NCBI GenBank assembly: GCA_903825435.1
Contig: CAIKAP010000199.1
Location: forward strand, 1,771-65,770
Source of the DNA: an uncultured Verrucomicrobiota bacterium
GTDB taxonomy: Bacteria > Verrucomicrobiota > Verrucomicrobiia > Palsa-1439
Length of the DNA stretch: 64,000 nt
Direction: 5' to 3'
Shown: in pieces, positions 2,400-38,709 of the stretch
Layout of the letters: each line of letters opens with the position of its first letter
Numbering within the stretch: position 1 is the stretch's first letter
Program-made: the position numbers and the translations under genes
The notes under the pieces: model-generated
What the model was told of the DNA's origin: nothing
What the model saw: only the letters and a program-made list of their open reading frames with translations
The model's database searches: none

Positions 2400-5116
2400 A
2401 AAAACTCTTTCTCGTATTCATCTCAATCGCCGCCTTCGTCGGCGCGATGGCGCGTGCTGGTACGACGTTGCCACAGCTCACCCCGCGTCCTATTTCGTGT
2501 GAAGTGATTGATCTGGCCGGCACGTGGCGCTTCAACGGTTCGGCCAACATCGTCGTACCCGGCGAGTGGGTCATGCAAGGCTTCGACGTGAACCCTGGCC
2601 AGCCCGCCCTCTACGAACGCGAGTTCACCGTGCCGGCAGGCTGGACCGGTCAGCGCGTCAAGCTGCGTTGTGACGCGGTGTTCAGCGATGCGACAGTGTT
2701 CATCAACGGCACGCAAGCCGGCAAGCATCTCGGCGGATTCACGCCGTTTGAGCTGGATGTGACGGTGCTGGTCAAGCCCGGCCAGCCGAACATCATCAAG
2801 CTGGCGGTGATCAGCGAGTCATTGGCGGACACGGAAGCCAGCGCGTCGAAGTATGCGTGTCATCCGCTCGGCGGCATCTCGCGCGGCATCCGGTTGTTTG
2901 CGTTGCCGGAGGTGAACGTGTCGTCGCTGTGCGTGGTGACGAAGTTCGATAAGAATTTCCGTGACGCGACGCTGGAGTTGGACATTGAGGCGACCGGCGA
3001 CGCGATGGAGGTATTGACGTTGACGGCACCCAACGGCAAAGACGTGCCGCTGGTGCCGAACCGTATTGCGCCCGGTCACGTCAGTATTCCGGTCTCGAAT
3101 CCGGTAAAGTGGGACAACGAACATCCCAACCTCTACACGCTCACCGTGAAGTTGGAGCATGTCGGCAAGGTGGTGGAGACGGTGACGCAACGCGTCGGAT
3201 TCCGGCAAGTCGAAGTGCGCGGTAACCAACTGTTCGTGAACGGCATGCCGGTCAAACTGCGCGGCATTTGCCGGCACGAGGTGTATCCGCTGACTGGCCG
3301 CTCGGTGCCGTCGGGGTTGCATCGGCGCGACGTGGAGTTGTTCCGCAACGCCAACGTCAACCTCATCCGCACGTCGCATTATCCGCCCGACGAGGCGCTG
3401 CTGGAGGCGGCGGACGAACTGGGCATGTTTATCGAGTGCGAAGCGCCGTTCTGCTGGGCCAATGACATCTCAGAAAAAGAGCATTTTAATGTTACGCCTG
3501 CGAGCATCGACATGACCCGTCAGGAAACCGCCGAAATGGTGCTGGCCTACCGGAACCATCCCTCGATTCTCTGGTGGTCGGCCGCCAACGAATCCCGGTG
3601 GGGCGTGAATTTCGAGGCCTCTACCAAACTGATCCGGGAATTGGATCCGACCCGCCCGGTCTCGTTCTCCTATCCCACATCGCAGAACCGCTTCGGACAC
3701 GAATTGGACATCAGCAACGTGCACTACGCCGGACACAGTGACCCCATCCACGCGCGTCGCGGTTATTCCAAGCCCATCTTTCAGGAGGAAGAATGTCACC
3801 TCAACGCTTACAACCGCCTCGAACTCGCCACCGACCCTGGCCTTCGTGATCAGTGGGGGAAATATTTGCGCGAGATGTGGGACGACCAATACAACTCCCT
3901 CGGCTCGCTTGGCCAGGCGATCTGGGCCGGTATTGACGACACGTTTTACATCAAGGACGACCTGACTGTCGGCTACGGCACCTGGGGACCGATTGACGGT
4001 TGGCGCCGCGAGAAGCCCGAATACTGGAACATGAAAAAAGCCTACTCGCCGGTGCGTCTCGGCAAACCCACCGTTAGCGGCAACACTGTCGCCATTAGCG
4101 TTGAGAACCGTCAACACTTCGCCAATCTTAACGAGATGAAGATCGCGTGGAAACTCGGCAGCCAATCCGGCACCACCACCACCGACGCCCCGCCTGCCGG
4201 CAAAAGCGCATTGTCCATCGCATTGAATGTCGCGCCCCAGTCCGGGGATCGGCTCGAACTCATTTTCACCGATCCGCGCGGTTTCGTGGCGGATGAGTTT
4301 TCCATTGCCCTTGGCGGCACGGTTGGGACACCGCACCGTACCAATGACTCCGTTCCGCGACCGACTGTTGACAAACGAACCGGCCGGATCACGGCACCGT
4401 TTACGGGTCCAGAGTTGATGCTGTTGCCGCTCAACAATGACGGTGAGACGCAGATGACCGGCAAGACCAAGGTGTGGACGTCGTTCACCGCACCATGCAG
4501 CGGTTGGAAATGCGACAACATTTTCGGCGAAGGCGACCGCATCACGGTGCAGGGACAGTACGACAACGCCAAAGGCGCGTACACCTACACGTTCAAGCCC
4601 GGCGGTGTTGTCGAGATCGCGTACGAGTTCACGGCCACCAAGAAGATTGACCCGCGTCAAATCGGGTTGGTGTTCACCTTGCCGCACGACTGCGAAGTGT
4701 TCACGTGGGAACGCACCGGCTATTGGGACGTTTACCCCGACGACCACATCGCCCGGCCCAATGGCACGGTGAAGGCATCGGAAGGGTTCCCCGCCACGTC
4801 CGTCGGCCCTCGCATCAAACCGTCACACCCGTGGCGCCTCGACAACCTGCCGTATGGCAACAACGACTTCTGTTCCACCAAGCACAACGTCCTCCACGCC
4901 ACCGTCCTCGACGTCGCCGGTCGCGGTCTTGTGATTGACGGCCAAGGCAAACAACACGTCCGTTGCTGGCGCACCGGTGACGCTGTCCACGTCCTTGTTG
5001 CCGACTACTCCAACGGTGGCAGCGAACGTTTTCTGCGTGGACTCATCCAGAAAGACGACCGTCCGCTCAAGGCTGGCAGCGTCGTCAAAGGCGTGGTGCG
5101 GTTGGAAGTCCGGTGA
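2396..5116 (+). CDS. Glycoside hydrolase family 2 (beta-galactosidase/beta-glycosidase type), secreted
   Basis: 906-aa ORF with signal peptide MKKLFLVFISIAAFVGAMARA. GH2 hallmarks are present: NLIRTSHYPP, MFIECEAPFCW, WWSAANESRWG. Confidence 0.85.
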   Translation: MKKLFLVFISIAAFVGAMARAGTTLPQLTPRPISCEVIDLAGTWRFNGSANIVVPGEWVMQGFDVNPGQPALYEREFTVPAGWTGQRVKLRCDAVFSDATVFINGTQAGKHLGGFTPFELDVTVLVKPGQPNIIKLAVISESLADTEASASKYACHPLGGISRGIRLFALPEVNVSSLCVVTKFDKNFRDATLELDIEATGDAMEVLTLTAPNGKDVPLVPNRIAPGHVSIPVSNPVKWDNEHPNLYTLTVKLEHVGKVVETVTQRVGFRQVEVRGNQLFVNGMPVKLRGICRHEVYPLTGRSVPSGLHRRDVELFRNANVNLIRTSHYPPDEALLEAADELGMFIECEAPFCWANDISEKEHFNVTPASIDMTRQETAEMVLAYRNHPSILWWSAANESRWGVNFEASTKLIRELDPTRPVSFSYPTSQNRFGHELDISNVHYAGHSDPIHARRGYSKPIFQEEECHLNAYNRLELATDPGLRDQWGKYLREMWDDQYNSLGSLGQAIWAGIDDTFYIKDDLTVGYGTWGPIDGWRREKPEYWNMKKAYSPVRLGKPTVSGNTVAISVENRQHFANLNEMKIAWKLGSQSGTTTTDAPPAGKSALSIALNVAPQSGDRLELIFTDPRGFVADEFSIALGGTVGTPHRTNDSVPRPTVDKRTGRITAPFTGPELMLLPLNNDGETQMTGKTKVWTSFTAPCSGWKCDNIFGEGDRITVQGQYDNAKGAYTYTFKPGGVVEIAYEFTATKKIDPRQIGLVFTLPHDCEVFTWERTGYWDVYPDDHIARPNGTVKASEGFPATSVGPRIKPSHPWRLDNLPYGNNDFCSTKHNVLHATVLDVAGRGLVIDGQGKQHVRCWRTGDAVHVLVADYSNGGSERFLRGLIQKDDRPLKAGSVVKGVVRLEVR

Positions 5117-32818: not shown

Positions 32819-35137
32819 ATGCGAAATGGTTTTCTGGTTGTATGTGCCATGTCTCTGATCGCCCTCAACCTTCACGCCGCTGACCTGCGTCCCGCGATGT
32901 TCGACGAATCGAAGGTGCCATCGTTCACGTTGCCCGACCCGCTAGTGATGAGTGATGGAACGAAGGTTGCCGACGCCTGCCAGTGGCGTGAGAAGCGCCG
33001 TCCCGAAATCCTTGAACTCTACCGCAGCCAGGTTTTTGGCCACACGCCGCAAACCATGCCGCTTAAATGCAAACTCATCTCCTGCGACAAGCAGGCGCTT
33101 GGCGGCAAAGCGACCCGCAAGTTGTTCCGTCTTTCGACGGCGAACGGCGCTTGGGGCATGGATCTGTTGGTTTATCTGCCTAACGGCGCCGGCGGTCCAG
33201 TGCCGCTTTTCCTGAGCATGAACTTCGACGGCAACCATACCATCAACCCTGATTCCGGCATCCCGATTCGTGAGCAGTGGACATGGGACAGTAAGCTGAA
33301 GCAGGAAAAACTCGTTCGCCCCACCGAGGAGACACGCGGCAAGGACGTCAATCGTTGGCCAATTGATACGATCCTCTCGCGCGGTTACGGTGTAGCGACG
33401 GTGGCGCGTGCCGACGTCGAACCGGATTACGCGGAAGGCTGGCGACACGGTGTGCGTGCCGTCTATTCCGGCGATTGGGGTGCTATCGGTGCGTGGGCGT
33501 GGAGCTTGAGCCGTGCGCTCGATTGTCTGGAGAAGGACGCCGACGTGGACGCGCGCCACGTCGCGGTCATCGGTCACTCGCGTCTCGGTAAGACGGCGCT
33601 CTGGGCGGGTGCGCAGGATGAGCGGCTCGCTCTGGTGATCTCGAACGACTCTGGCGAAGGTGGCGCGTCAATCACGCGTCGTTGTTTCGGCGAGACGATT
33701 GCGCTGATGAACAGGAAATTCCCGCACTGGTTCTGTGCGAACTACAAGAAGTACAGCGACCGTGAGAACGACCTGCTGGTGGACGCGCATATGCTGGTGG
33801 CGTTGGGTGCGCCGCGTCCGATCTACGTGGCGAGCGCATCGGAGGATTTGTGGGCTGATCCGAAGGGTGAGTTCATGGCCTGTCAGAACGCCGACCCGGT
33901 TTACCGGTTGCTTGGTGTCGCCGGGTTTGGTGTGGACGCCATGCCGCCGGTCAATATGCCGGTCGGTAAAACCATTGGCTACCATCTTCGTAAGGGGAAA
34001 CACGACATCACCGAGTACGATTGGAAACAGTACCTCGCGTTTGCCGATCGCCATTTCAAGAAGATTTACGCGGTTTACTTCGGCACGTACACCAAGGGTA
34101 AGAGCAAGGGGATTTACCGTGCGCTCTTCGATGCCGCGACCGGCAAGCTCGCTGAGCCGGAGTTGGCGGCGGAGACGAAGAACCCGTCGTTCCTAGCGAT
34201 TCATCCGAGCCGAAAATTCCTGTACACCGTCGGTGAGGTGTTGGGGAAGAGAGGTGGCGTAGTCAGCGCGTTCGCCATCGAGCCATCGGGCAAACTCACG
34301 CTCATGAACCAGCAATCAACCATCGGCGGCGGACCGTGCTATGTCGGCGTTGACAATACCGGCAAGAACGCGCTTGTCGCCAACTATGGCGGCGGCAGCG
34401 TGGCGGTGTTTCCGATCGGCACAGATGGCACGCTCGGAGAAGCGACGGCTTTTGTGCAACACACCACGTCTCGTATAGACCCACTACCCCAGAAGGTAGC
34501 ACACGCGCACTCGATTTTTCTTGATGCGGAAAACCGATTTGCGTTTGCGCCAGACCTTGGTCTGGACAAGGTGATGATATACAAGTTTGACGCCGACAAG
34601 GGCGCGCTCACGCCCAACGTCCCGCCGTTCACCGCCGTCGCGCCCGGATCGGGGCCGCGGCATTTTGCGTTTCATCCGAACGGCCGGTTTGCGTACGTCA
34701 TCAACGAGATAGCCTGCACCGTCACGGTGTTCCGTTATGACGCAGAGCGCGGTGCGCTTAGCGAGGTGCAGACGATTGCGACATTGCCAGCGGGCGAGTC
34801 AGTGCGGGCAGGCTACAGCACCGCCGAGGTGCGTGTCCATTCATCGGGCAGGTTCCTCTACGGCTCCAACCGCGGCCATAACAGTATCGCTGTGTTCGCG
34901 ATTGACGGCGAGAGCGGTAAACTGACGCTGATTCAGCACGAGCCGACGCAGGGCAAGACGCCGCGTAACTTTAACCTCGATCCGGCCGGCAGATGGCTGT
35001 TGGTAGCGCACCAGAACTCCGATTCAGTTGTCGTGTTCCGCGTTGATCCCGCGACAGGAAAACTGACGCCGACCGGGCAAAGCATTGAGATCGGCTCGCC
35101 GGTGTGTGTGAAGTTCATGCCAGTGGAGCTGCCATGA
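32819..35137 (+). CDS. Fusion protein: CE15-like glucuronoyl/acetyl-xylan esterase (N) + 7-bladed lactonase / 6-phosphogluconolactonase-like beta-propeller (C)
   Basis: Signal peptide, then a nucleophile elbow VIGHSRLGKTALWAGAQDERLA (CE15 S-R-x-G-K pattern). From about aa 425 come YFGTYTKGKSKGIY and GSGPRHFAFHPNGRFAYVINE, typical of the lactonase propeller family. Confidence 0.7.
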   Translation: MRNGFLVVCAMSLIALNLHAADLRPAMFDESKVPSFTLPDPLVMSDGTKVADACQWREKRRPEILELYRSQVFGHTPQTMPLKCKLISCDKQALGGKATRKLFRLSTANGAWGMDLLVYLPNGAGGPVPLFLSMNFDGNHTINPDSGIPIREQWTWDSKLKQEKLVRPTEETRGKDVNRWPIDTILSRGYGVATVARADVEPDYAEGWRHGVRAVYSGDWGAIGAWAWSLSRALDCLEKDADVDARHVAVIGHSRLGKTALWAGAQDERLALVISNDSGEGGASITRRCFGETIALMNRKFPHWFCANYKKYSDRENDLLVDAHMLVALGAPRPIYVASASEDLWADPKGEFMACQNADPVYRLLGVAGFGVDAMPPVNMPVGKTIGYHLRKGKHDITEYDWKQYLAFADRHFKKIYAVYFGTYTKGKSKGIYRALFDAATGKLAEPELAAETKNPSFLAIHPSRKFLYTVGEVLGKRGGVVSAFAIEPSGKLTLMNQQSTIGGGPCYVGVDNTGKNALVANYGGGSVAVFPIGTDGTLGEATAFVQHTTSRIDPLPQKVAHAHSIFLDAENRFAFAPDLGLDKVMIYKFDADKGALTPNVPPFTAVAPGSGPRHFAFHPNGRFAYVINEIACTVTVFRYDAERGALSEVQTIATLPAGESVRAGYSTAEVRVHSSGRFLYGSNRGHNSIAVFAIDGESGKLTLIQHEPTQGKTPRNFNLDPAGRWLLVAHQNSDSVVVFRVDPATGKLTPTGQSIEIGSPVCVKFMPVELP

Positions 35138-35218
35138 AGATGCAGAACGCGGGTGACGTGACCGCGCTTTTTCGAGCCACCTGTGATGTTAGTCTGGGGC
35201 CTAGAGAAAGGACCCAGT

Positions 35219-35314
35219 ATGAAAGGCAAGCGGTATACGACAGAGGATAAGATTCGCATCCTGCGGGAACCCTTGGAGACGCTGGAGAAGATGATGCGCC
35301 TCTGCGAAGTCTGA
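35219..35314 (+). mobile_element. IS3-family transposase OrfA N-terminal remnant
   Basis: The translation MKGKRYTTEDKIRILRE.. matches the conserved start of IS3/IS407-type OrfA HTH proteins. It then diverges and stops after 31 codons. Confidence 0.45.
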
Positions 35315-35422
35315 TCCGGACCCCCCGTCACCATGTCGCTGAGTGTCCGCCGTTGTAGGGCGCAATGAAGTCGCTCGGCAGCCATACCTGCTCTGCCCGT
35401 CCTGTGCTGCATGGTGAAGCAA

Positions 35423-35838
35423 TTACTTGCTTCCAACTCTCCGTGCCTCAATGCGAGATGCTTGGAAGCGAATGAGTTCATCTATAAGCTGATACATCTG
35501 TTCGCTGGTAGTGGACTCTTTCCATGCGAAGGCATTGGCGATAGCTCGGAAGACGGTCGCCTCGACGCACCTTTCCTCAACTGCCTGTTCGTAAGCAGGA
35601 TGCGAGACGTTGATGTTGATTACCAATGCGTCGTTATCGAAGCGACACTCGTAACGTCAACTCCGAGAGGCTTCGTTGTGATCTTGTAGTTCTTCTTGCC
35701 TAAATGAATCTGGCCGATTCCCGGCAGTGCATCCAATTCATGTCGCAATTTCTTGTCAGTAATGCCTGCCGGGTTAGGGCGCAATAATCTGAAACCGTTC
35801 CGACCGGACAAGCTCGATGCTGTTGTAATCCTCAGCAT
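35423..35838 (-). pseudogene. Disrupted unknown gene downstream of the restriction endonuclease (two frames)
   Basis: ORF 35620-35838 (..ITDKKLRHELDALPGIGQIHLGKKNYKITTKPLGVDV..) continues in another frame as ..RYECRFDNDALVININVSHPAYEQAVEERCVEATVF.. (35423-35650). The frame switch lies near 35620-35650. I recognise no family. Confidence 0.3.
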
Positions 35839-36535
35839 CGTTGAACTTGAACTGCCAAAGGGAATAGCATGAATCGTCGCACTGAAAGAAAATCGTCACT
35901 ACCGGTTTCTTCGTGCACGCCTGCCATTGCCGGTAAGGATAGTAAAGCTGGCGGATGATGGTGTTCGTGGAAGAGGCGGACTTTGCTTCGATTAGTGCGA
36001 CTTGGTTTCTACCTTCGTAGCCGGCGTCAACCTCAGTCTGAACGCTTTGTGTTTCCAACCGGCACTTCCCCACGCGAAAGCTGAATTGAGGTGTGTATTT
36101 CCGTCCGCGAATCGTCAGCACGAGCGATGGGTCTTGGAGGAATGTCCGAATCAGACTTGAAGCGTATGCGAAATCAAGGTGCTGCATCTCCGAGTCACCA
36201 ACCACGGAGGTATCCAAGTGAAAATCCAACTGCGATTTGTAAACGCGGTTCGTCCTTTTGATCGGCGGTATGTCAACGTAGCCTTCCCCTTGAACAACCC
36301 CGTACGTGCCGTTTCGGGTTGGCAGGAGAAACAAACCGTTTTCACGGAACACGCCCGGCCGGTCCTCTCGCGAATCTTGCTTGCAGAGAATTCGGACTTC
36401 TCGTTCATTTGTCGTCTGGAAATGGCGAGTGGCTTTCTTGATCTGATCGGCAGTTACCGAAAATGCACCTCGCGCGAAATCGTGGCGAAGCATGCCGGTA
36501 TGTTCGGCGATTGCCGCCCAAGGAGCATCGTTCAC
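35774..36535 (-). CDS. Type II restriction endonuclease (PD-(D/E)xK-like), specificity unknown
   Basis: 253 aa directly downstream of the methyltransferase. The GTG start is preceded by AAGGGAGGG. The candidate catalytic segment is VQTEVDAGYEGRNQVALIEAKS (D..E.K). The call rests mainly on context. Confidence 0.6.
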   Translation of the reverse strand: MNDAPWAAIAEHTGMLRHDFARGAFSVTADQIKKATRHFQTTNEREVRILCKQDSREDRPGVFRENGLFLLPTRNGTYGVVQGEGYVDIPPIKRTNRVYKSQLDFHLDTSVVGDSEMQHLDFAYASSLIRTFLQDPSLVLTIRGRKYTPQFSFRVGKCRLETQSVQTEVDAGYEGRNQVALIEAKSASSTNTIIRQLYYPYRQWQACTKKPVVTIFFQCDDSCYSLWQFKFNDAEDYNSIELVRSERFQIIAP

Positions 36536-36536
36536 G

Positions 36537-37479
36537 TCAGCGCCCTCCCTTGTCTTCGGAGAGGCTGAAAAGATCGCTTTTCTCGCTGACTTCCTGCTTT
36601 AGACGATTGGCAGCAAGTTCACAGTGCTTGGGATCAAGTTCAATCCCAACAGATCGTCGTCCCTGTCTCACGCAGGCGACGGAGGTTGTCCCCCCCCCCC
36701 ACGAATGGATCAAGAACGAGGTCGCCTTTGTTGGTGGAGGCGAGCAAACAGCGTTCAACTAGCGCGACCGGCTTCTGCGTTGGATGCTTGCCAAACTTCT
36801 TCTCATCGCTACCGGGCGCGGACATCGTCCAAACAGTTTTCATCTGCTTGCCGGTCACAGCTCGCATGTCGTCGTAGTTGAAGACATGCCGGCTCTTCTC
36901 GCTCTTCGCGGCCCAGAGGACGGTCTCGGTTGAGTGCGTGAAACACCGGCAGCCGAGGTTCGGCGGCGGGTTGGGTTTTTCCCATGCGATGTCGTTGAGG
37001 ATGCGGTAGCCGAGTTGTTGCATGGCGTAGCCGACGCTGAAAATGACGTGCAGTGTGCCGGTCACCCAAATTGTGCCGTTGGGTTTGAGCACACGCCGGC
37101 AACGCTCCAGCCAAGCGCGGTTGAAGTTGTGGTTCTCTTCCGCGCCTTGTGATTTATCCCAGTCGCCTTTGTGAACGCTGACCATCTTGCCGGCGTGACA
37201 GGTGATGCCGCCATTGGAGAGGAAGTACGGCGGGTCGGCAAAAATCATGTCGAAGCAACCATCAGGATATTTCGCGGCGATGGCGTCGAGCACCTCCAGA
37301 CAGTCACCTTGGTACAGGAAGACACCGTGATTGTCGTCCCGGTAGACGCAGTTGAGCAGCACGAGGGCCGCCTCACCGATGGTGATGCCCTCGACGGGAT
37401 TGATCGCGCCGATGCGTTCCGGTTTCTCATGATACCGGAAAAGCTCCGACGGCTTCTTGGTCTTGGTCTTTTTGGCCAT
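36537..37479 (-). pseudogene. Beta-class (DPPY) N6-adenine/N4-cytosine DNA methyltransferase, DpnA/M.MboI-B-like, disrupted by a +1 frameshift in a G11 tract (candidate phase-variable gene)
   Basis: Motif IV MIFADPPYFLSNGG, GDWDK, HSTETVLWA, GKHPTQKPVALVERCL. The frame ends ..DPFVGGGDNLRR..* at 36640, while the next frame (36537-36758) carries the missing motif I, [22 protein letters not shown]. Confidence 0.8.
36690..36700. repeat. Homopolymer C11 (G11 on the coding strand) inside the methyltransferase
   Basis: Read directly: ..ggttgtc cccccccccc acgaatgg.. It is the longest mononucleotide run I saw in the window. Confidence 0.95.
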
Positions 37480-37485
37480 GAGGCG

Positions 37486-37520
37486 GATCGATCACTGTTT
37501 TGGCGGAAATGATCAAGATC
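37486..37520. promoter_or_regulatory. Cluster of four GATC sites immediately upstream of the methyltransferase start
   Basis: ggcGGATCGATCactgttttggcggaaatGATCaaGATCaatcg. GATC occurs at 37486, 37490, 37511 and 37517. The MTase ATG (complement) is at 37479. Confidence 0.35.
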
Positions 37521-37544
37521 AATCGTGAGTCAGTTAGCGCGGCC

Positions 37545-37802
37545 ACATCATCCCTTGGCAGCCTCGCGCCTCTCTGGAATGGCTTGCTTTTCAGAAGAAC
37601 CTAAGAAAGTTCTGATTTGATCTCTTGCTATAACGATTGCGTACAATTTCCCCGGTGTCGCCCCGCAAATTGTCGCAACATCAGTTCACTCAACTTCGAC
37701 AAACTGCTTCAAAGTCTCGATCCCAGCTTGTCGGAGAATATCGAGGCATTCTTCAGACAGCTTCAAGGTGCCGATACTATTGGAAAGTTCGACATTCATC
37801 AA
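37545..37802 (-). pseudogene. Possible decayed RNA-polymerase-alpha-CTD-like helix-hairpin-helix protein
   Basis: The minus-strand frame reads MNVELSNSIGTLKLSEECLDILRQAGIETLKQFVEVE*TDVATICGATPGKLYAIVIARDQI. This resembles the alpha-CTD HhH pattern (LS.R..N.L...GI.T...L) but is interrupted by an in-frame TGA at 37686-37688. Confidence 0.3.
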
Positions 37803-38061
37803 TTACGCGCGTCTGACTGGTCGCCTTCATCGTGTACAGCCCGCAGAAGCGGGCCGATGGAGCCGGTGTCGGCATCAAAGCCAAACACCAAACCGTTAAT
37901 GAACTTTAAGTTCACATTGCCAACCTGTCGCTTTTGCATGTCAATCCTTCCGTAAACTGTTTCGTTTCGACCGGCCATGTTTCTGCCCAAATTCTACAGC
38001 AGTTGGCGAGGCTATTTAATAAATCGGGCAAGCTGGAACAAAAACGGAACATGAGGTGACG

Positions 38062-38709
38062 TTAGACGCCGATTTTGGGGCAGAGGTCGTGGAGTTCGCA
38101 GTGAGCGCAGTCCGGTTTGCGGGCGATGCAACGACGGCGTCCGTGCCAGATGAGCAGGTGGGAGAAATCTATCCAGTTTTTGCGCGGGACGATTTTCATC
38201 AACGCTTGCTCGATCTTTTCTGGCGTGGCTTGGCGCGTGAGGCCCATGCGACGAGAGAGGCGCATGACGTGGGTGTCCACGACGATGCCTTCGGCTTTGC
38301 CGTAGCCGGTGCCGAGGACGACGTTGGCGGTCTTGCGTCCGATGCCGGCGAGTTGAACCAACGCTTCCAGCGTGTCGGGGACGCGTCCGCCGTGTTGCTC
38401 GGCGATGGCGCGGCAGCAGCGGCGGATGGAGCGGGCTTTATTGCGGAAGAAACCGGTCGGATGGATGATGAGTTCGAGTTCGCCGGGAGGCGCGGCGGCA
38501 AAGTCAGCGGCGGTGTGGTAGCGCGCGAAAAGGGCGGGTGTGACTTGGTTGACGCGGACGTCGGTGCATTGGGCGCTGAGGATGGTGGCGACGAGAAGCT
38601 GGAGCGGGTCGGTGTGTTCGAGGGCGCAACGGTAGTCGGGGTGGGCGCGTCGCAGGGTGGCGATGAGGTGCGGGAGACGTTGGGACAATTTGGGCTTGGC
38701 AGCACTCAC
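38062..38709 (-). CDS. nth: Endonuclease III
   Basis: LLVATILSAQCTDVRVN, HhH-GPD motif LAGIGRKTANVVLG, Fe-S loop CIARKPDCAHCELHDLC. The GTG at 38709 is preferred because the ORF to 38784 would overlap the divergent fdxA start. Confidence 0.88.
   Translation of the reverse strand: MSAAKPKLSQRLPHLIATLRRAHPDYRCALEHTDPLQLLVATILSAQCTDVRVNQVTPALFARYHTAADFAAAPPGELELIIHPTGFFRNKARSIRRCCRAIAEQHGGRVPDTLEALVQLAGIGRKTANVVLGTGYGKAEGIVVDTHVMRLSRRMGLTRQATPEKIEQALMKIVPRKNWIDFSHLLIWHGRRRCIARKPDCAHCELHDLCPKIGV

Follow-up and report, generated by a model that had tools for sequence, protein, structure and literature searches.

A candidate contingency poly-G tract in motif I of a restriction-modification methyltransferase from an uncultured Verrucomicrobiota bacterium

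The methyltransferase, its poly-G tract and the adjoining gene

The 64-kb stretch of DNA from an uncultured Verrucomicrobiota bacterium analyzed here (contig CAIKAP010000199.1, positions 1,771 to 65,770; hereafter, the window) carries on its minus strand a DNA methyltransferase gene interrupted by a homopolymer and followed directly by a putative restriction endonuclease (REase) gene, the two forming a candidate restriction-modification (R-M) pair. As sequenced, the methyltransferase open reading frame (ORF) extends over 36640–37479 (minus strand) and encodes 279 amino acids (aa), with a C-terminus of ...DPFVGGGDNLRRLRETGTTICWD* and everything past motif I missing. The frame is lost at a run of 11 G (G11; 36690–36700, minus strand, corresponding to a plus-strand C11) that codes for the glycines of the AdoMet-binding motif I (DPFVGGG), in the coding-strand context GAT CCA TTC GTG GGG GGG GGG GAC AAC, and translation then meets a TGA at 36642–36640, 16 codons past the frameshift and 104 nt before the start of the downstream gene. 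With one G fewer, the methyltransferase frame runs on to a TGA at 36539–36537 and the product reaches 313 aa; tracts of G10 and G13 are hence in frame in the window, and G11 represents a +1 OFF state. The C-terminal segment regained in this manner (36537–36689, minus strand) comprises 50 open codons under purifying selection plus the TGA, and a single C separates it from the GTG start codon (36535–36533) of the next gene. A first-pass annotation, made from the letters of this DNA, had described the G11 run with its loss of frame and stop at 36640, the restoration of the frame by G10 up to one nucleotide before the following GTG, and a termination of the OFF frame some 100 nt ahead of the REase start, and the sequence bears out each of these points.

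Once repaired, the protein (313 aa) aligns with Pfam PF01555 (N6_N4_Mtase) over positions 2–220 of the 221 in the profile (E 4e-56), scoring 190.8 bits against a cutoff of 26.7. The earlier assignment of the tract to motif I of an R-M methyltransferase is upheld. Motif IV (DPPY; 37225–37236, minus strand, residues 82–85), read from the sequence and concurring with the Pfam and CcrM alignments, precedes the DPFVGGG of motif I (residues 257–263), revealing the permuted motif order of beta-class enzymes, in which CcrM, M.HinfI and DpnA (M2.DpnII) likewise present DPPY before FxGxG. The closest solved structure is that of CcrM (6PBD, E 2.6e-56, residues 55–297), and the CcrM equivalog is also the top NCBIfam match, at 235 bits against the 830-bit cutoff of that model. 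CcrM is, however, an orphan cell-cycle methylase, whereas the window enzyme is paired with a putative nuclease gene and does without the C-terminal domain of CcrM.

The tract itself is exceptional in its sequence context. It is the sole run of G or C longer than 7 nt in the 64 kb, where a first-order Markov model expects 0.005–0.01 runs of at least 11 by chance. The GGG codon accounts for 10.8% of glycine codons in the 27 long ORFs of the window, and GGG GGG GGG is used in none of its 15 other Gly-Gly-Gly triplets. Remoter members of this R-M family encode motif I with GGC GGC GGC or GGC AGT GCA and have no tract, which identifies the tract as a derived feature kept in this clade. The tract is thus retained against codon bias. 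Furthermore, among some 55 homologues in GTDB representative genomes, motif I is frameshifted only in the three that carry an uninterrupted run of at least nine G (the window lineage, a sister lineage and L040, with G9), while the approximately 50 homologues with mixed glycine codons are all in frame at this position. The methyltransferase of L040 (positions 3634–4326; GTDB metagenome-assembled genome [MAG] GL93_UP_metabat_23) is 71–73% identical, carries an ACA-G9-T at motif I and is +1 frameshifted; its shifted frame continues into a different downstream gene with a weak, just-below-cutoff match to PDDEXK_11, a PD-(D/E)XK family, and the locus has the appearance of another type of R-M system equipped with a comparable tract.

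The downstream gene (35774–36535, minus strand) is intact, starts at a GTG and encodes a 253-aa protein with DUF6996 and DUF6997. Its Shine-Dalgarno (SD) sequence, AAGGGAGGG (36543–36551, minus strand), was already anticipated by the first-pass annotation and lies within the final codons of the in-frame methyltransferase gene. The protein has 4117 homologues (63–85% identity) in many phyla, every one of them annotated as hypothetical; at the sequence level, searches yielded no meaningful match in the PDB and none in NCBIfam or in a phage collection, and no report on DUF6997 was found in the literature. An AlphaFold (AF2) model (pLDDT 84.9) returns PD-(D/E)XK nucleases as the top Foldseek matches by probability, among them Cas4-family ACE1 (probability 0.98–0.99), RecU, SSO0001 and McrC, although these matches are weak (E 4e-3 to 3e-2, TM ~0.25). 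Residues D170, E183 and K185 (VDAGY...IEAKS) are invariant across 34 homologues. A PF01555 methyltransferase directly precedes the DUF6996/DUF6997 gene in four lineages (the window, its sister, P0124 and P0128), and on plasmids of Firmicutes, homologues of about 30% identity come after adenine methylases of the Dam type. The identification of the partner as a restriction enzyme in the first-pass annotation is therefore a plausible one, in view of the conserved methyltransferase-REase synteny, the invariant D/E-x-K and the predicted PD-(D/E)XK-like fold, and the DUF6996/DUF6997 protein is plausibly a Type II REase. The gene layout is that of a Type II R-M system, with separate methyltransferase and putative nuclease genes that are adjacent and co-oriented and whose pairing is conserved across lineages.

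The pair resides in a low-GC island (approximately 35250–38050; GC ~0.49–0.58, against ~0.60 in its flanks), with an endonuclease III gene on one side and a GCE_fung/lactonase gene on the other. Downstream of the REase gene, the island contains a 67-aa ORF (35423–35626, minus strand) that matches no family (a Pfam hit at E 0.06 only) and shows 26 differences with respect to L082, a locus of the window lineage, nearly all at third codon positions; the sequence upstream of this ORF is identical between the window and L082. Judging by this substitution pattern, the ORF looks genuinely coding, and a recombination event or island boundary appears to lie near 35.58 kb.

Tract length in the sister and window lineages

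The first-pass annotation had suggested that tract length be compared among relatives, and such a comparison shows it to be variable in the sister lineage and either G11 or G12 in the window lineage. The sister lineage, which includes the GTDB MAG "uncultured Verrucomicrobia bacterium Kiruna2_bin-0915", is 81–84% identical to the window in the methyltransferase and 82–83% in the REase, and bears its tract (TTC-Gn-ACAACT) at equivalent codons. Counted as contigs in a 90% protein cluster (P0243–P0256), the sister alleles encompass G12 (35 contigs, 316 aa) and G9 (4 contigs, 315 aa), which are in frame (ON), together with G10 (38 contigs, 282 aa), G13 (7 contigs, 283 aa) and G11 (9 contigs, 280 aa), which are out of frame (OFF), with about 40% of the contigs in frame. 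Sister loci recovered as DNA comprise G10 (n=12), G11 (n=2) and G12 (n=10) alleles.

These lengths are distributed over genes that are otherwise nearly invariant. The 1.7-kb R-M coding sequence displays 0–2 single-nucleotide polymorphisms (SNPs) among sister loci, and each of two haplotypes (Thr45 and Ala45) is found with four or five tract lengths. In two instances, SNP-identical R-M genes carry differing tracts: L066 (G10) is identical to L070 and L071 (both G11), and L069 (G12) to L073 (G10). Given that lengths differ on R-M genes separated by 0–2 SNPs, the tract is by far the fastest-changing character of the sister locus and has been recurrently altered. The REase protein is identical between ON and OFF contigs, and the dominant allele alternates from sample to sample within a single study series, with ON and OFF alleles each dominant in different samples of one lake series; among the G12 and G10 samples listed there is no overlap, and hence, within those lists, no sample with contigs of both lengths. 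Length polymorphism of this kind, on identical genes, is what slipped-strand phase variation leaves in a population. The length variation expected of the ON/OFF switch put forward in the first-pass annotation is thus documented in the sister, with G9 to G13 tracts and both states on identical genes, but the window lineage has contributed OFF alleles only.

The sister island is located elsewhere in the chromosome, with Ham1p-like and NTP_transferase genes as its neighbours, and the flanks of the sister loci L066–L073 differ by up to ~2.5% (15–99 mismatches in 5.7 kb), as opposed to the 0–2 SNPs of the R-M genes. Near-identical R-M genes within divergent flanks, at a site other than that of the window, suggest from sequence comparison a recent horizontal spread or sweep of the R-M island among strains.

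In the lineage of the window, the exact 279-aa product (P0001) is encoded on 7 public contigs, and G11 is present in about 12 public assemblies. The loci recovered as DNA with G11 (L001-3, L076, L077, L079, L080 and L082-84) stem from JGI, ENA (SPAdes-style scaffolds and MEGAHIT k141) and Logan, and one further locus (L081) carries G12 on a remaining sequence identical to that of the G11 loci. This recurrence runs counter to a sequencing or assembly homopolymer error, in which the true tract would be G10 and the gene intact, an outcome that the first-pass annotation had itself listed as a refutation. Several sequencing platforms are prone to errors in long runs of G and a number of contigs end at the tract, but about 12 assemblies, from JGI, ENA (in two assembler styles) and Logan, agree on G11, with one G12 besides. 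Moreover, the same pipelines, in one case on the same sample, yield sister tracts of G10, G11 or G12, including in-frame ones, and they report G11 in 10 of the 11 window-lineage loci. Pipelines that return all these sister lengths and yet an almost uniform G11 for the window lineage show no systematic +1 artefact and little noise, making an error of this kind extremely improbable. Contigs L074–L077, L083 and L084, from three lineages, start 0–25 nt from the tract, and the three JGI contigs of the window lineage all start at or after it, with none spanning it. Such starts are consistent with an assembly graph broken either by mixed tract lengths or by poor read quality at poly-G.

The exclusive finding of OFF alleles in the window lineage, with G11 about 12 times, G12 once and G10 or G13 never, is also what would be expected of a locked pseudogene, in which a single slip to G11 has silenced an island that is no longer used and is heading for loss, such that the variability of the sister would not apply to it. 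The codon preceding the run points the same way, since the first Gly codon is a GTG (Val) in the window lineage and the run is consequently shorter than the TTC-G12 of the sister. The state of the surrounding sequence, on the other hand, is not that of a decaying locus. Between window and sister, the ratio of nonsynonymous to synonymous substitution rates (dN/dS) amounts to 0.083 for the part of the methyltransferase gene ahead of the tract, 0.089 for the restored-frame part behind it and 0.052 for the REase. These low values in each segment indicate that in-frame translation of the C-terminus prevailed during most of the divergence and that the nuclease gene is not decaying. The post-tract segment retains 68% aa identity to the sister, its frame contains neither a stop nor a further indel, and the window REase preserves all the residues that are invariant in the 34-sequence family alignment. 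The run has been retained in both lineages even though their dS is saturated (1.2–2.3), and G11 is still intrinsically mutable, as the G12 variant on an otherwise identical sequence illustrates. Furthermore, an intact REase next to a dead methyltransferase is expected to be counter-selected quickly unless the REase is also off. A dN/dS ratio cannot date the frameshift of the window, and a recent lock is compatible with the values obtained; on balance, a locked pseudogene appears rather unlikely.

A different account of the same alleles is that G11 is functional or leaky, with slippage by RNA polymerase or +1 slippage by the ribosome restoring the frame in some products, so that a low constitutive level of methyltransferase would shield the chromosome from an intact REase. 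Transcriptional slippage does occur at long homopolymers, such as the poly(A) tracts of endosymbionts, and in two lineages the prevailing alleles are OFF and accompanied by an intact REase. Most OFF alleles across all lineages fall in the +1 class (window G11, sister G10 and G13, P0009 G13 and L040 G9) and could be rescued by a single direction of slippage, the other OFF frame class being represented only by the 9 contigs of sister G11. Slippage is nevertheless best documented on runs of A or T rather than of G or C, a stimulatory element did not come to light, the folding of the surrounding sequence does not surpass that of shuffled sequences, and in-frame sister alleles (G12 and G9) are common, at about 40%, so that the frame is not fixed as shifted. 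Recoding of this sort is accordingly judged decidedly unlikely.

The reading that best accommodates these data, to which we assign a probability of roughly 0.7, is that G11 is a real, hypermutable contingency tract within motif I of a beta-class DNA adenine methyltransferase, caught in the window in its OFF state, and that this enzyme is part of a two-gene, Type II-like R-M island acquired horizontally by a freshwater Verrucomicrobia-type bacterium. In this scheme, slipped-strand mispairing during replication would alter the number of G; in the window, 10 or 13 G would give the full 313- or 314-aa enzyme (ON), and other lengths would shift the frame just after DPFVGGG, so that the remainder of the AdoMet-binding fold would be lost (OFF). 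The +1 OFF allele of the window would be the dominant allele of its population and able to switch back, and the partner would, as its sequence suggests, be an active endonuclease. Several observations weigh against this interpretation. No in-frame allele (G10 or G13) of the window lineage appears in the protein database or in the 11 DNA loci. The loci of this lineage are almost clonal, with 100% identity over up to 4.1 kb; they are hence only weakly independent of each other and, being near-clonal, cannot show reversibility. Contig ends at the tract are only suggestive as a sign of within-sample length heterogeneity. In the sister, G10 (38 contigs) is far commoner than G11 (9 contigs), which simple one-step slippage around G12 does not predict. 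Lastly, the activity and specificity of the REase are predictions, its Foldseek matches being weak and its 4117 homologues all annotated as hypothetical.

Coupling of the two genes, target site and recurrence of motif-I tracts

A contingency tract confined to the methyltransferase raises the question of how OFF cells escape their own nuclease, and this need makes translational coupling the most economical proposal. Under such coupling, translation of the REase would require ribosomes that read the methyltransferase through to its stop, OFF cells would survive, and a single tract would switch both genes, with methylase-OFF cells being also restriction-OFF. The first-pass annotation had likewise suggested that the OFF state lowers REase translation, and the arrangement of the genes lends this some substance: the methyltransferase stop and the REase start overlap in the sister (TGATG) and abut in the window (TGAcGTG), and the SD of the REase is predicted to be paired in both (probability of being unpaired 0.11 in the window and 0.28 in the sister), in the window mostly with a CCUCUCC located ~10 nt upstream. 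Tract-less relatives present no SD-pairing feature comparable to that of window and sister. However, the folds that would sequester the SD are not more stable than those of shuffled sequences (z -1.4, +0.5, -1.0 and +0.9) and the SD of the REase is itself strong, and for these two reasons the predicted coupling of REase translation to methyltransferase read-through remains a weak case. Alternatives by which OFF cells might escape include rescue by slippage, a second methylase elsewhere and a nuclease that needs the methyltransferase; a search of the 64-kb window for a second protective methylase found no other PF01555 and no Dam-like match. A scan of positions 35000–38100 detected no sigma-70-like promoter, and terminator-like sites are no more frequent there than in shuffled sequences.

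In the tract-less relatives L092–L094 (P0124), a divergent 73-aa gene of the HTH_3 family, resembling those of controller (C) proteins, is situated upstream of the methyltransferase. This gene is absent from the two tract-bearing lineages, that is, from the window (37480–38060) and from the sister. In the tract-bearing lineages, the tract and coupling may have taken over the controlling role of a C protein.

The methyltransferase probably recognizes GATC rather than GANTC, on the evidence of the partners of close relatives. GATC is favoured because a 77%-identical methyltransferase has a MutH-like nuclease as partner and because distant homologues of the REase are paired with Dam-type enzymes. 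Site avoidance within the window is uninformative in this regard, with observed/expected ratios of 0.78 for GATC and 0.87 for GANTC and far stronger depletion of many unrelated 6-mers. Several 6-bp palindromes are scarce with respect to Markov expectation, such as CTGCAG (1 vs 13.5), CTCGAG (3 vs 36), CAGCTG (2 vs 15), GGGCCC (0 vs 5) and CCCGGG (1 vs 8), and their depletion hints, as a feature of sequence composition, at past exposure of the genome to other restriction systems.

Runs of G at motif I are not confined to these lineages. A scan with a pattern that requires a tract (GATCC-N-TTY-NNN-G7+...ACNAC) yielded 7 viral and 51 metagenome contigs. Each of the seven viral matches (IMG/VR, L085–L091) is a methyltransferase whose motif I contains the run, three of them being out of frame, and the PF01555-like matches in the scan output (viral L085–L091 and metagenome L103–L153) contain runs of G7 to G12, with 20 in frame and 11 out of frame. 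Close relatives occur in opposite states, as in L105 (G10, in frame) and L106 (G11, shifted). A phage-like family (PKP[LV].M.SSFVERF..) is represented in both frame states and with several tract lengths. A slippery run at the Gly-Gly-Gly of motif I is therefore a recurrent element of environmental and phage methyltransferases. It is tempting to extend these observations into a broader proposal, in which a single motif-I tract switches a whole Type II system through coupling and methylation switching by simple sequence repeats (SSRs) is general beyond host-adapted pathogens, but this we advance as a tentative possibility only. If the single-tract switch were true, free-living lake bacteria could toggle a defence island; if the recurrent motif-I design were true, SSR phase variation of DNA methylation would be general outside host-adapted pathogens.

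Relation to known phase-variable systems

Host-adapted pathogens such as Haemophilus, Neisseria, Helicobacter and Campylobacter provide the textbook examples of R-M systems that vary in phase through repeats, a behaviour usually ascribed to immune or host pressure. In Campylobacter, poly-G tracts are about 8–13 nt long and populations contain mixed lengths; an R-M example, cj0031, is a fused Type IIG enzyme. In the PhasomeIt survey, the intragenic poly-G contingency loci of Campylobacter jejuni include R-M genes (PMC6321876); they resemble the window locus in having a poly-G tract inside the gene and differ from it in phylum and ecology. The Type III mod genes (modA, modM and modH) of the phasevarions of Haemophilus, Neisseria, Moraxella and Helicobacter (PMC6902483, PMC5700931) also feature an SSR within the methyltransferase ORF, which in their case produces stochastic ON/OFF expression; at the DNA level, they and the Campylobacter loci operate as the window tract would. 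In those Type III systems Res needs Mod and the OFF state is harmless, whereas in the window the beta-class methyltransferase is of Type II and its putative nuclease is a protein apart.

Within the Verrucomicrobia, phase-variable Type I hsdS invertons have been catalogued, mostly in host-associated bacteria (PMC7672463). These rely on site-specific inversion of specificity genes, in contrast to the SSR frameshift of a Type II methyltransferase described here. The view taken in the first-pass annotation that such a switch was undescribed in PVC-type bacteria consequently holds for the SSR-driven Type II form, of which no report in Verrucomicrobia or other free-living freshwater bacteria was found in the literature searched, but not for R-M phase variation at large, given the inversion-type systems already on record.

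The interest of the system lies partly in its setting, as public metagenomes alone reveal such behaviour in uncultured, free-living freshwater Verrucomicrobia, through five tract lengths on identical genes. Samples dominated by G12 or by G10 constitute a natural experiment for MAG-resolved analyses of methylation, phage load and gene flow. Sequence and model also point to a probable function, as Type II REases, for the DUF6996/DUF6997 family and its more than 4000 homologues. Furthermore, frameshifts at motif-I G runs in the methyltransferases of MAGs and phages should be neither silently corrected nor dismissed as pseudogenes.

Among the systems described so far, NlaIV of Neisseria gonorrhoeae comes nearest. 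In N. gonorrhoeae and N. meningitidis, this Type II system consists of two genes and has a REase of the PD-(D/E)XK type; length changes in a poly-A at nt 793 of the methyltransferase gene lead to truncated products of 273 or 291 aa, ON and OFF alleles are spread through the population, and the NlaIV REase has a poly-T switch of its own (bioRxiv 10.64898/2026.01.10.698759). Like NlaIV, the window system places a homopolymer inside the methyltransferase ORF of a two-gene Type II arrangement. Unlike NlaIV, it has a tract in the methyltransferase only, this tract is a poly-G located exactly in motif I, and the enzymes belong to other families; in addition, the host of NlaIV is a host-adapted pathogen and that of the window system a free-living lake bacterium. 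The window system hence adds an instance of a known mechanism, the phase-variable Type II R-M system, and not a new mechanism.

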